Assembly: GCA_016207405.1 (NCBI GenBank)
Contig: JACQPQ010000053.1
Span: forward strand, 8,246-72,245
Reading direction: 5' to 3'
DNA: 64,000 nt
Source: Gammaproteobacteria bacterium
GTDB lineage: Bacteria; Pseudomonadota; Gammaproteobacteria; JACQPQ01
Within the stretch, counting starts at the first letter, position 1. Every line of letters begins with the position of its first letter. Shown piece after piece: positions 32,287-36,348 of the stretch. The notes under the pieces are model-generated. The model saw only the letters and a program-made list of their open reading frames with translations, had not been told where the DNA came from and did not search any database. Made by a program: the position numbers and the translations under genes.

Positions 32287-35200
32287 ATGAGAATTCATTT
32301 TCACAGCAACGGTCTCAAAGCCCTGGCCGCGTGTTTTAGCTTTTTCTTTTCTTCCCTGCTTTTTGCTCTACCTCCTTCTCCTATCAATACCGAGCTCCTG
32401 AATCAACTTACCGCTCGCGAAGACGTGCTCGTGAATGAAATGGCAACCATTCGGGAGAATTTGAATGCTGCTTATAATGCTAAAAAACTGGAGGTTCCAG
32501 AATATCAGCCAATACTCAATAAACTGAATGAGTTAGAATACATCCAAAACCGCTGTTCATCTCTCACGCCGCCTCAAACATCTCTTTGTCTGATCTCGGA
32601 TTATGTGTCTCTCGCAAAAAAAACAGTCGAGAGCATTCTGAATTTAAATAACCTTTATGCACATCCCCTATTTGGAGAACGTGTTTACCAGGCTTGTCAT
32701 GCATTTACGACTAGTGATTTCCCTAATTACACAAACTTTCTTATCCATAATGATGAAAAACTCTCTGCGTTCTTTGCCTATTTTTCAGAAAAAGAAAAAA
32801 TAGTCAGGAAACTGAACGAGCGCATGGAGGATGCGTTTAAAAGCATCCAAACCACACCTGCCGATAAAATAGTCACTCTCCTCAAACCATTGCTGCATCA
32901 ATTGCCTGATTTTATTGGCCAGTTGCTTGTACACACTATTGATACGAACCCAACGCGGTCTGATTGGACAGCGCTCAAGGGCTTAGTTGGCAAACACTTT
33001 TCTTTATATCTGGATGCGCTGAATGAAGTGGCCATGCTCGCCATTGAAAATAAACCAGATCTATCTTTCCTCATCATCGAAAAATGGGCAAAACAGGGAA
33101 TTCCTCCGGAGCTTCTTTTACGTCACGTGCAGAATACACAGGCACTCTGGAATTCATTTGATACAACGAATATTCAAATTAAAGCCACAGAGTATTGGTT
33201 AAAATGGCAGCAAGTCTTAAAGACGGGCGGGCAAGGCTTGTTCTTTGAAGACAATTGGAAACTCACCCAAAAAAACCTCGGGGAGAAGAGAGCCTTAGAT
33301 GAGGAAAGAGACAACTTTCTGAAGCGGTCTTCTCTGGGGTTTCAAGAAGCTAAGAGATTATGGGATAAGAGAATTTCCCAGTTAGAGCACATCAAAGAAG
33401 CGGTCACAAAGGCTATAGGGGAAGTCCCTTTCACTTGGGAGGAAGTCCCTGCCGAGCTCGCGCCGTTTTTAGACCCTGCAGAAGTTGAATTGCGATATGC
33501 AAGCAAACTCTTAGCTAACAGCGAACCTGAAAAGCAACAAGCCAGTTTTGCAATTATTTCTGGGATTATCGATTTTATAAAACGTGAAGTTAAAGATGAA
33601 ACCCTGCGGAAGAAGATCATGGCACGCCTGGCAGAGCGGACTATTCTAAAGTGGGCAGAGGTTACTTGGCAGCTTGGATATCTCAATTACCCCTCCCAAG
33701 ATGGAACGCTTGCGGCTCTTGTTTCAAACAACCATCACAAAATTTCTCTTCTTTACTCCAAGGTTAATAAACTCTTCCCAGGCGTTATTGCAGACAACAA
33801 GGTGCAAGAGATGCTCGACCGTGCGCGAGACGAGGGTCGTCGAGCTAGAAAAGAAGCTTTGAATACCGGTCGTTCACTGCAGGAGCAAGAGCAAGACATG
33901 TGGTTTATCAAGCTCTTAAAGGTCATTCCAAAAGTTGCAGAAAGTGTTTCCGATATCACAGTTGCCAATCTGCTGTATTGGACTGGATTTCCCAATCTTG
34001 CGGTGGATTGGATTGTTGCAAACAGAGAAGTCATGAACAAGGTGTTTGGAGGTTCCATTCTTGGCTCCGAACATGAACTCATGAATGCCACACAGTTTGA
34101 ATTATTTGCAAGAGTGTTTCCGGTTGCTCAACTGGGGCAAGGGTTCAATCCTCTTATCGAAGGCGTCCATGAGACCTATGAATGGTATGCCAAAACGGTA
34201 ACCGGATTAAGTGACAAGCAGTACCGCGAACGGTTGCAGCACGATCCGTTACTCAAAGCTGGGGAAGCCTCCTTTTACATCGCGCAGGCGTCAATGGGGC
34301 TTGCGCTGTCCATGCCTACTTCCAATCTAGCTTGGCTGGCGCAGCTCAAATCTGCAACCAGAGTGCTGTCGGTTGCGGGGGGATTAAGCGGTGCGACAGC
34401 TTTGGGTCAAGAATTGATTTTGTCCGGGGACCAAAACGGAACGTTCGACATAAAGAGACTGCTCTCTACAGCCGGCGAGTCCACTTCTGGCAGTCTGTTG
34501 TTTATGGGAGGGCTTGCAAAAGCAGCGAAAGTGATTGCCGGGCAAGGGGAGGCCATTACCTTAGCATCGATCTCGAGAGCCCAAACATTTACACGTGGCG
34601 TGGATGTGGTTGAAGGTTTGGGAGGGCTTCAAGACACTGCCACTGCGTTTAAGGTGGCAGATACTTGGCAGAAGTGGATAGGTGCGTCGATCATTGCTGG
34701 CGCTAATTTTGTAGATACCTTTGATGTTTCTCTTTCTGGAATTGTAAAAAATCTCTCACACTTACGCAGTCAGTTTATAAATTCTCAAATTTTGAGGGAA
34801 TGGGGACAGAATGACGGTCCGTCGTCCCGCCAGGACTTTAATATCCTGCCTCCAGGAGTCACCGAAGCAGACATTCAACAATTTCAAGCGCTATCTCCTG
34901 AGGATTTGCTGAAGACTTTGTCTCCTGAAAAAAGAGCAAAGATAGAAGGACAGCTCGAGGTTTCTCTCACACGTGCTAAGGAGAGATATGGAGAGCATTC
35001 TGGGGTAACCTATTTTGCCGATATTTCTTCGAATCAATCTTCTTCCGAACACAAAATGGAGTTGGGTATTGCTAAAAAAATTGCTTATGGCTTTATAAAT
35101 TCAAGATTCCCTTTAAGTGAAAAAGGAGAAGAGCTAAGCGCAAGGGTTCGAAATGCCAGCAATGATGAACTTTTAAAATTGGCTTCAGAAGAACTCCCAA

Positions 35201-36348
35201 CTGTTGAAGAGCCAAGATTAGATCTTTTTCGGGACTTGAATATTCCATCATATGTCTCTCTTGACGATTTTACTAACATACAGCTTACAAAAGGATGTTC
35301 GCATCAATGTGGTTTTTGTGCAGTGAGCGCAGGGCCGAAAATTCAGTTTATGCCGTTTCCAGCAGTGTTAAAATTCGCAGAAATCTTCCAGAAGAATCTG
35401 TGGCTAAAGTTCGACCAGGCTTGGGACAAATGGGTTAACGATATTCAATCCGAATTTGGGGTGGACATCCAAAATGACCACGAAAGAGAGGATTTCTTAA
35501 AGTTCCTCGAGAACCATACGCAAGCTACTGACAGTCTTATCGTACTATATAAAATGCAGCTTCCTTTGCATCGGTTAGTTCGCGATTACATTTTTTCATC
35601 TTTCGAATCTCATACCTTACAAAACATTTTTTGTAAGGAAGCTCTGAAAAAAAGATTAGTCGGACCTGTAAACCACCATTTGCGCGGACATCTTTATAAC
35701 TACTATGATAGCGACCCTTTTGACTATCGTGATAGCAATTTTTTACATAAAAACGGAACGCCAGCACATTTTGGTGATGCCGTTCGAGCCCTGACCTCCT
35801 CACAAAACAAAATGATTTTCGTCACGACAGCGGGATGGCCTAAAGGTTTCAAGCTTGCTCAATTAGCTGCTGAAGATATTGTTGCGCAATCCAGCAAAAG
35901 ATGGGAGATACTTAATTTGCGATATAGTGTCAACAAGTCAGAGCGGCTTGCACGAAGAAATCTAGAGAAGTACAGAGACAATGTGATAGCCAATTTACAG
36001 GTCCTTCATATAGCTAACCCTCAGGTGATAATATATGAAGACGATACCAAGGATTTTGATGCATTTAGGGAATTAGTTGCAAAGCCCGTGGAGGAATTTG
36101 CAAGAGGCCTAGAGCTAGGTGTAATTAAACCCCCTATTTCTGGGTTTTCTGGTCGGGAGGCTGGTCCGGGTAAAAAAGCCAATAATGATGTGATGGCTTG
36201 TTTGCATGGCTGGCATGTGTGGCCAGATGGGACCCTTGCTTGGCAGCAAGTTGACTATGATGCGATAAGTCGGCAACCAAAGGAGACAAGCAAAGGAAGT
36301 CGTCCCAAACCAATAGGATGGAAGGCGTGGGACTTGGATTCAAAGTAA
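32287..36348 (+). CDS. Giant (1353 aa) signal-anchored protein with C-terminal radical-SAM-like domain
   Basis: Uninterrupted 4.06-kb ORF with RBS agaggg before the ATG. N-terminal hydrophobic signal/anchor. CX3CX2C (CSHQCGFC) at nt 35296-35319, preceded by IQLTKG. Downstream blocks YNYYDSDPFDY, IFVTTAGW and LRYSVNKSE sit at radical-SAM-like spacing. The N-terminal 1000 aa are unrecognised. Confidence 0.6.
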   Translation: MRIHFHSNGLKALAACFSFFFSSLLFALPPSPINTELLNQLTAREDVLVNEMATIRENLNAAYNAKKLEVPEYQPILNKLNELEYIQNRCSSLTPPQTSLCLISDYVSLAKKTVESILNLNNLYAHPLFGERVYQACHAFTTSDFPNYTNFLIHNDEKLSAFFAYFSEKEKIVRKLNERMEDAFKSIQTTPADKIVTLLKPLLHQLPDFIGQLLVHTIDTNPTRSDWTALKGLVGKHFSLYLDALNEVAMLAIENKPDLSFLIIEKWAKQGIPPELLLRHVQNTQALWNSFDTTNIQIKATEYWLKWQQVLKTGGQGLFFEDNWKLTQKNLGEKRALDEERDNFLKRSSLGFQEAKRLWDKRISQLEHIKEAVTKAIGEVPFTWEEVPAELAPFLDPAEVELRYASKLLANSEPEKQQASFAIISGIIDFIKREVKDETLRKKIMARLAERTILKWAEVTWQLGYLNYPSQDGTLAALVSNNHHKISLLYSKVNKLFPGVIADNKVQEMLDRARDEGRRARKEALNTGRSLQEQEQDMWFIKLLKVIPKVAESVSDITVANLLYWTGFPNLAVDWIVANREVMNKVFGGSILGSEHELMNATQFELFARVFPVAQLGQGFNPLIEGVHETYEWYAKTVTGLSDKQYRERLQHDPLLKAGEASFYIAQASMGLALSMPTSNLAWLAQLKSATRVLSVAGGLSGATALGQELILSGDQNGTFDIKRLLSTAGESTSGSLLFMGGLAKAAKVIAGQGEAITLASISRAQTFTRGVDVVEGLGGLQDTATAFKVADTWQKWIGASIIAGANFVDTFDVSLSGIVKNLSHLRSQFINSQILREWGQNDGPSSRQDFNILPPGVTEADIQQFQALSPEDLLKTLSPEKRAKIEGQLEVSLTRAKERYGEHSGVTYFADISSNQSSSEHKMELGIAKKIAYGFINSRFPLSEKGEELSARVRNASNDELLKLASEELPTVEEPRLDLFRDLNIPSYVSLDDFTNIQLTKGCSHQCGFCAVSAGPKIQFMPFPAVLKFAEIFQKNLWLKFDQAWDKWVNDIQSEFGVDIQNDHEREDFLKFLENHTQATDSLIVLYKMQLPLHRLVRDYIFSSFESHTLQNIFCKEALKKRLVGPVNHHLRGHLYNYYDSDPFDYRDSNFLHKNGTPAHFGDAVRALTSSQNKMIFVTTAGWPKGFKLAQLAAEDIVAQSSKRWEILNLRYSVNKSERLARRNLEKYRDNVIANLQVLHIANPQVIIYEDDTKDFDAFRELVAKPVEEFARGLELGVIKPPISGFSGREAGPGKKANNDVMACLHGWHVWPDGTLAWQQVDYDAISRQPKETSKGSRPKPIGWKAWDLDSK

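Follow-up and report, generated by a model that had tools for sequence, protein, structure and literature searches.

What kind of protein is encoded by the single unbroken frame of 1353 codons that starts with ATG and occupies positions 32287..36348 (+, stop codon included) of contig JACQPQ010000053.1 from Gammaproteobacteria bacterium (assembly GCA_016207405.1)? Positions are those of the window, which is the whole 64,000-nucleotide stretch that was analysed; features of this gene are all on the + strand. A first-pass annotation had read the product as a giant signal-anchored protein ending in a radical S-adenosylmethionine (SAM)-like domain, and our computational follow-up divides it into five modules: a leader (residues 1-28), an orphan region (29-490), a helical module (491-829), a junction (849-912) and a C-terminal domain (913-1353). 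What is new here is a polymorphic-toxin-like secreted protein with an unreported radical-SAM-like cargo and an undescribed helical module. The annotation knew of no family with such a layout, and we likewise found none in Pfam, NCBIfam or PDB and nothing comparable in literature searches. Our tentative reading of the product, which falls somewhat short of an even chance, is a modular effector or toxin-like protein that is exported with the radical-SAM-like domain as its cargo.

The C-terminal domain and its family

An exhaustive HMMER search with residues 154-1353 against 1.84 billion representative proteins returned 154 proteins. About 110 of them match residues ∼929-1353, and most of these are stand-alone proteins of 410-570 residues. 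Stand-alone members with source names are entered as "hypothetical protein" of Patescibacteria, or candidate phyla radiation (CPR), lineages (Magasanikbacteria, Daviesbacteria and Pacebacteria). The C-terminal domain (35023..36345; alignments A1 and A2) thus belongs to a sizeable, mostly CPR family, a point absent from the first-pass annotation; its delineation draws on this family, an AlphaFold2 model, Foldseek comparisons and weak PF04055 matches. Word-index homology searches with the full giant protein and with a profile of the helical module found no relatives, probably because low-complexity words swamped the candidate lists. A scan of genome contigs with the full giant protein yielded no relative, and neither did a scan of viral contigs.

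The motif CSHQCGFC, read earlier at codons 1004-1011, was confirmed at 35296..35319, directly after strand β1 (IQLTKG). It has the spacing Cx3Cx2C (C1004, C1008 and C1011), which would be expected by chance only ∼4e-4 times in the giant protein because there are only 9 Cys in 1353 residues. The anticipated invariance of the three Cys was borne out by the homologues: among 134 proteins that carry the domain, 116 have Cx3Cx2C and 6 have Cx3Cx3C, and the 12 that lack both are fragments. The residue before the third Cys in the family is F (60) or H (41), and in 92 of 113 members a His stands two positions past the first Cys, giving C-x-H-x-C-x-x-C. When 41 and 50 members were aligned, the three Cys, H1006 and the blocks LPTVE, YDSDPFDY, LHxDGxPAxxGD, TTAGW, RxSVN and ACMPGxHxWPDG proved invariant or near-invariant.

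The blocks YNYYDSDPFDY, IFVTTAGW and LRYSVNKSE, which had been proposed to fall on the GGE-, TNG- and SxD-type strands of radical SAM enzymes, rank as the family's best-conserved motifs and lie on predicted strands β2, β3 and β4. β2 and the following loop (LYNYYDSDPFDYRD, 35692..35733) are at the radical SAM GGE position, with near-invariant D, P, F, D and Y. In β3 (IFVTTAGW, 35815..35838) T, T, A and G do not vary across the compact-core alignment, and in β4 (LRYSVNKSE, 35917..35943) R and S are invariant. These blocks differ from the canonical SAM-binding motifs (GGE, the ribose motif and GxIxGxxE), of which GGE and GxIxGxxE are absent; YDSDPF, TTAGW and SVN/SLD occupy the collinear positions. 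Compact versions of the domain read SLD at β4, like canonical radical SAM enzymes. These compact copies, found inside giant proteins, are missing a ∼100-residue helical insertion which, with an extended α1 (residues ∼1024-1124, 35356..35658), lies between the Cys loop and β2 in the giant protein. The C-terminal blocks NDVMACLHGWHVWPDGT and KGSRPKPIG (36184..36318) form a small β-sheet and contain C1305, the only other conserved Cys of the domain.

The first-pass annotation had called for a search with the radical SAM model PF04055. This gave a match at the Cys loop, over profile positions 1-40 of 166, but at 19.4 bits (E 0.0012) it was below the gathering cut-off of 29.5 bits. Weak matches were obtained for 35 of 41 family members (best E 6.5e-7), always in the first ∼40 profile positions, and two members reached the gathering score (30.6-31.0 bits). 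When the insertion was deleted in silico, PF04055 became collinear over 138-142 of its 166 positions in three relatives, with a gain of only ∼2 bits; in the naturally compact member P0120 the alignment extended over positions 2-102. The NCBIfam PoyD model matched at 17.8 bits (cut-off 325). PDB sequence searches with the single protein and with domain and compact-core profiles, with and without the insertion, gave nothing significant, and when the family was compared by hhalign with one ELP3-like radical SAM protein, the alignment was limited to the Cys loop.

A confident AlphaFold2 model of residues 900-1353, built with 50 sequences, has a predicted local distance difference test (pLDDT) score of 85, a predicted template modelling (TM) score of 0.86 and alternating β/α structure. 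The modelled order is three N-terminal helices, an extended, well-ordered LPTVE segment, β1, the Cys loop, a long α1 with the ∼100-residue helical insertion, four β/α units and a small C-terminal sheet; the four later units carry YYDSDP, TTAGW, SVN and VIIY at or after their strands. Foldseek against PDB placed the radical SAM enzymes QueE, DesII, EpeE (probability 0.91), MiaB and CteB on top. Against BFVD the top match was a phage MoaA/NifB/PqqE protein (probability 1.00, root mean square deviation 3.9 Å over 161 columns, E 0.013), and several of the other neighbours were "Fe-S oxidoreductase" or radical SAM proteins. The TIM-barrel-type radical SAM fold that had been anticipated is thus consistent with the β/α order and the identity of the neighbours, but the E-values (0.013-0.04) and TM-scores (0.2-0.3) are not significant.

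We call the domain radical-SAM-like because it has the Cys motif and a consistent predicted fold, and its sequence scores stay below statistical significance. On sequence and model, superfamily membership is plausible but not proven. As judged from its sequence, the C-terminal domain is an undescribed and very divergent radical-SAM-like family.

Could the domain be something other than a radical enzyme? The Cys triad and the near-invariant His might bind a structural or catalytic metal (e.g., zinc) in a TIM-barrel-like hydrolase, transferase or binding module able to work outside the cytoplasm, with the loop as its sole likeness to radical SAM enzymes. We consider this unlikely, at roughly one chance in five. 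The limitation of PF04055 similarity to the Cys loop is in its favor; however, the profile becomes collinear up to 142 of 166 positions in three relatives once the insertion is deleted, and P0120 reaches position 102. The fold matches are statistically weak, yet radical SAM enzymes lead the structural neighbors in two independent libraries. Similarly, YDSDP and TTAGW replace the canonical GGE and GxIxGxxE, but the compact versions have the canonical SLD at β4. The His two positions after the first Cys, to our knowledge not a feature of classical radical SAM enzymes, would suit a metal site, and Sec export of several members is hard to square with an oxygen-labile cluster. Against this, the exact Cx3Cx2C spacing, the F or H before the third Cys and the location right after β1 are hallmarks of the radical SAM superfamily.

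Set beside that superfamily (PF04055; nearest are MoaA/NifB/PqqE-type cores, EpeE and PoyD), the domain shares Cx3Cx2C after β1, in which the third Cys follows an aromatic residue or His, a collinear β/α alternation, and conserved residues at the C-terminal ends of β2-β4. It differs in the ∼100-residue helical insertion after α1, in having YDSDP, TTAGW and SVN where the superfamily has GGE, TNG and SxD, and in its own N-terminal helices with the invariant LPTVE and C-terminal sheet with ACMPGxHxWPDG; unlike the superfamily, it is fused here to an exported carrier of 900 residues. An auxiliary-cluster Cys motif of the SPASM/twitch type was not found, C1305 being the one further conserved Cys. 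A role as maturase of ribosomally synthesized and post-translationally modified peptides was rejected: there is no precursor peptide and no auxiliary cluster, and no neighbor family is conserved in 27 loci.

Those 27 distinct loci of stand-alone genes were compared for a conserved neighbor and none was found, no neighbor family being common to more than 3 of them. A NUDIX hydrolase gene was seen within 5 kb of the stand-alone gene in 3 of the first 4 distinct CPR loci (L085, L086 and L088); the association was lost in the clustering of the 27 loci.

The carrier and the exchange of its C-terminal cassette

The domain is preceded by a predicted carrier of ∼900 residues with a Sec-type leader, in agreement with the earlier proposal of a radical-SAM-like module on a large exported carrier. 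The leader (residues 1-28, 32287..32370) consists of MRIHFHSNGLK, a 17-residue hydrophobic core and LFA/LPPSP, the slash marking a cleavage site judged by eye. By its sequence it looks like a Sec-type signal peptide or signal anchor. The hydrophobic signal or anchor noted earlier at the N-terminus was confirmed, residues 10-30 being the only segment of the giant protein with clear transmembrane-level hydropathy (Kyte-Doolittle value over 19 residues, KD19, up to 1.92). Over ∼34 residues the leader is 82% identical to that of P0001 (MBI4357082.1) and 62% to that of P0139 (MBI4356944.1), two relatives from one Gammaproteobacteria metagenome-assembled genome. The N side of the hydrophobic core is positively charged (R2, K11) and the C side acidic; by the positive-inside rule, the bulk of the giant protein should lie outside.

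No twin-arginine motif (RR) is present in the leader (MRIHFHSNGLK...), and among the other exported members of the C-terminal-domain family only P0135 has RR. Export by the twin-arginine translocation (Tat) system was rejected since the leader is without RR. A lipoprotein was also rejected: a lipobox-like string, LAAC, occurs at residues 13-16, but almost no hydrophobic stretch precedes its Cys. The orphan N-terminal region (residues 29-490, 32371..33756) gave no homologue or domain, residues 1-153 being covered by the word-index search only.

Residues 491-829 (33757..34773; alignment A3) form a conserved module, delineated from its homologues and an AlphaFold2 model, which is all α (pLDDT 74). 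By the HMMER-based search it is present in 38 proteins of 180 to at least 5000 residues; where a source is named, it is a metagenome-assembled genome of Bdellovibrionota or Deltaproteobacteria, and about half of the 38 start with a classical signal peptide. The module is rich in small residues (G+A+S 0.28-0.37 over residues 601-800). The Gly/Ala/Ser-rich hydrophobic zone that the first-pass annotation thought able to insert in membranes is therefore real, and it belongs to a conserved module common to many giant proteins, which had been overlooked; but the zone is mildly hydrophobic (KD19 <1.3 except at residues 802-820) and does not reach transmembrane hydropathy. Neither Foldseek nor a profile search found a significant PDB match in fold or in sequence. 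The top Foldseek matches, all non-significant (E ≥0.5), were helical membrane proteins and the pore toxin AhlB. It is a candidate membrane-insertion or translocation module.

What lies on either side of the helical module differs in conservation. Regions N-terminal to it are more often related among proteins than the regions after it, and the C-terminal region has no match to the others in 18 of 25 proteins. Pfam domains were absent from 13 helical-module relatives, except for a C-terminal PLD domain in one.

A case of exchange is provided by P0001 and P0139, which are 72% identical over ∼950 residues from residue 1 and unrelated thereafter. Past the shared junction (...SLARAKERYGEHPGV.Y...) comes the radical-SAM-like domain in P0001. 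In P0139 its place is taken by an unrelated domain of ∼245 residues that contains HEMSH (an HExxH motif), is without a Pfam match and may be a new metallopeptidase-like cargo. The same conserved junction is found in the giant protein (residues 849-912, 34831..35022, ILPPGVTEADI...ERYGEHSGVTYF). It is kept in P0001 and P0139 whatever cargo follows, the cassette boundary coinciding with its end. P0001 (1396 residues) resembles the giant protein in overall architecture and shares with it the leader, the junction and the cargo (63% identity over residues 849-1353); the central scaffold differs. Since P0001 and P0139 have the same scaffold and different ends, this is cassette swapping, and on sequence comparison the C-terminal domain behaves as a swappable cassette.

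Insertion-free copies of the domain were found in further large proteins with signal peptides, namely P0135 (5110 residues), P0172, P0125 and P0120. P0098 has a signal peptide, the helical module and, by eye, a divergent copy of the domain (CKVGCCFC, LYYESDP) that the family hidden Markov model misses. As a separate observation, P0134 (2411 residues) combines a DnaJ J-domain (residues 1370-1419) with a compact radical-SAM-like domain (residues 1892-2210).

Proposed export and delivery, and a possible role in the producer

Where could an exported domain of this type act? Substrates of Sec are unfolded when they pass the membrane, and export of iron-sulfur proteins from the cytoplasm depends on Tat. 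Given a Sec-type leader without RR, an exported radical-SAM-like domain would be active only after reaching another cytoplasm, and such a confinement points to delivery into a prey or host cell. In the effector or toxin-like reading, Sec would carry the polypeptide unfolded through the inner membrane and, as there is no twin-arginine motif, without a preassembled iron-sulfur cluster. The helical module would insert in the membrane of another cell (prey or host) and aid delivery of the cargo; folding, acquisition of a [4Fe-4S] cluster and binding of SAM would have to wait for the cytoplasm of the target cell. There its radical reaction would have a widely conserved macromolecule or nucleotide as substrate. 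The lack of a dedicated partner gene near the stand-alone homologues suggests that the enzyme is self-sufficient and that its substrate is common in cells.

Three known systems offer partial parallels. Polymorphic toxins, in the classification reportedly given by Zhang, Aravind and colleagues in 2012, are said to be modular secreted proteins with a conserved N-terminal trafficking part, a pre-toxin junction and variable C-terminal cassettes. Like them, P0001 and P0139 keep leader and scaffold and exchange the C-terminal enzymatic domain at a junction that is conserved; hypervariable regions follow the helical module, and PLD and HExxH domains are among the alternative cargoes. Unlike them, the giant protein has no known trafficking domain, only a Sec-type leader, and no adjacent immunity gene. 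We know of no polymorphic-toxin catalogue that lists a radical-SAM-like cargo. AB-type toxins have helical translocation domains, such as the T domain of diphtheria toxin and the delivery region of large clostridial toxins. The giant protein resembles these in that an all-helical module, rich in small and hydrophobic residues, separates the exported N-terminus from the enzymatic C-terminal cargo; however, no sequence or structural similarity was detected, and a role of the module in translocation is putative.

Viperin and the prokaryotic viperins are radical SAM conflict enzymes that make chain-terminating ddh-nucleotides (3′-deoxy-3′,4′-didehydronucleotides). Their motif seems to resemble the Cys loop of the domain, and they set a precedent for a radical SAM conflict effector acting on a universal substrate, but they act inside the producer and are not secreted. 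The possibility that the domain is itself a prokaryotic viperin was rejected, as no homology was detected beyond the loop and PDB-chain profile searches (assumed to include viperin structures) gave no significant match. Nothing relevant on radical SAM toxins or effectors came up in literature searches, and radical SAM goes unmentioned in a preprint on the giant genes of predatory bacteria.

A number of observations weigh against delivery of a radical SAM cargo. All evidence is computational. Among the stand-alone homologues, 112 of 114 are without a signal peptide, which makes an ancestral role in the cytoplasm probable for the domain. The PF04055 score below the cut-off, the PDB sequence searches without a significant match and the non-significant fold matches belong here, as do the helical module's lack of a PDB relative and its hydropathy below the transmembrane level. 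Pfam and NCBIfam scans of the giant protein recognised no toxin-trafficking domain (RHS, PAAR, TPS/FHA, LXG, MafB and others). Neither flank of the giant ORF (open reading frame) contains an immunity-like small ORF; the 229-bp downstream spacer has only short ORFs of ≤58 residues, none convincing as an immunity gene. Finally, we know of no precedent for an iron-sulfur enzyme that receives its cluster only after delivery into another cell.

Part of this evidence would also suit an enzyme that stays with its producer, held in the membrane by an uncleaved anchor and acting on an endogenous substrate (e.g., in envelope or RNA/protein modification), as is presumably true of the stand-alone CPR homologues; the large N-terminal part would then be a scaffold and not a device for delivery. 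The stand-alone homologues without signal peptides resemble ordinary cytoplasmic enzymes, the gene lies among housekeeping genes in DNA of unremarkable guanine plus cytosine (GC) content, and an immunity gene beside the giant ORF is missing. Such a tethered enzyme is nevertheless improbable in our estimate, on a par with the metal-binding alternative above: the flank charges of the leader predict the N-terminus in and the bulk out, which would put a cluster-dependent domain in the periplasm. It also fails to account for the exchange of a radical-SAM-like for an HExxH domain on a single scaffold, for the hypervariability downstream of the helical module and for the recurrence of the domain in giant proteins with signal peptides.

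The gene in its genomic setting and what it may mean

The description of the giant gene as a single 1353-codon ORF with its own upstream region holds: the frame is intact, and the intergenic region before it (31768..32286, +) measures 519 bp. A plausible ribosome-binding site, AGAGGG, stands 7-8 nt upstream of the ATG. A scan of the + strand of this region gave no strong sigma-70 consensus. A hairpin with an 8-bp stem at 32243..32262 (+), 25 nt upstream of the start codon and with a T-rich tract behind it, could act as a leader structure or terminate an upstream transcript.

An artefactual ORF, whether made of unrelated genes joined by a frameshift or in assembly or left by a pseudogene in decay, is hardly credible: its modules differ in evolutionary affinity and the N-terminal 460 residues have no homologue, but a stop-free frame of 4.06 kb cannot arise by chance at 44% GC, homologues bridge every junction that could be tested (P0064 and P0082 for residues 431-835, P0001 for residues 849-1353), P0001 has the same overall architecture at similar length, the conserved family residues are all intact, and of the fusion that the first-pass annotation had named as a hazard no sign was found.

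The annotated neighbors agree with the earlier placement of the gene between nrdAB and a pair of OmpR-type regulator and histidine kinase genes. Upstream, all on the - strand, are nrdB (26839..27954), nrdA (28053..30860) and an ORF for a Cys-rich protein of 306 residues (30847..31767). Downstream, the OmpR-type regulator (36578..37291, +) is the next gene, followed by the histidine kinase (HAMP/HisKA/HATPase; 37314..38315, +). The Cys-rich neighbor and the two-component system had been put forward as partners of the giant ORF; we found no evidence connecting either with it. The Cys-rich protein has an N-terminal hydrophobic segment and then four tandem repeats of ∼68 residues, each with 6 Cys and ending in ...YYCK, its only match being a sub-threshold one to Colipase.

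The remaining genes of the window are chromosomal housekeeping genes: alaS, recA, gyrA, purC, dapA, dxr, secDF, tgt, rsmH (mraW), ftsI, murE, murF, mraY and murD. GC content near the giant gene is 0.40-0.49, and an Rfam search gave no match near it. The best matches of the window's NrdA among 185,579 species representatives are only 63-68% identical and are spread across many Gammaproteobacteria.

Other observations in the window concern a few further ORFs. A lone GspH/FimT-type pseudopilin gene with an N-terminal methylation motif (39022..39558, -) is, besides secDF, the sole secretion- or pilus-related gene seen. An AcaB-family transcriptional regulator (49918..50844, -; PF08900, E 8e-62) is located within the otherwise housekeeping stretch and overlaps a Glu/Leu/Phe/Val dehydrogenase ORF; the family presumably comes from IncA/C plasmids and integrative elements. 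Four ORFs of 162-316 residues (881..1747, +; 4767..5255, +; 42772..43722, -; 54184..54675, -) are without a Pfam match, and the one at 42772..43722, which overlaps the dxr ORF at its start, is perhaps not a genuine gene.

In its fullest form, the delivery hypothesis would make this the first radical SAM enzyme used as a delivered weapon, exported cluster-free by Sec, carried by a new helical translocation module and armed by the victim's SAM and iron-sulfur assembly machinery. Elsewhere, the family would supply episymbiotic CPR bacteria with a stand-alone protein, either an effector or a housekeeping enzyme, and predatory or symbiotic lineages with a domain of their giant proteins. We regard this whole picture as unlikely, with perhaps one chance in four of being right. 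If it were true, radical chemistry would join the repertoire of secreted bacterial toxins and effectors, and the question would arise of how an oxygen-labile iron-sulfur enzyme becomes armed after delivery in another cell.

Two modules without a Pfam or NCBIfam family or a significant relative of solved structure emerge from the analysis: a radical-SAM-like family of ∼130 clusters centred on CPR/Patescibacteria, and a helical module of ∼38 large or giant proteins in metagenome-assembled genomes of Bdellovibrionota, Deltaproteobacteria and Gammaproteobacteria. Both are located in the genomic "dark matter" of organisms that live by interaction with other cells. The radical-SAM-like family, being small, soluble and self-contained, lends itself to direct tests of its chemistry. 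Should the toxin reading fail, this radical-SAM-like enzyme, conserved across CPR and of unknown function, would still deserve characterisation.

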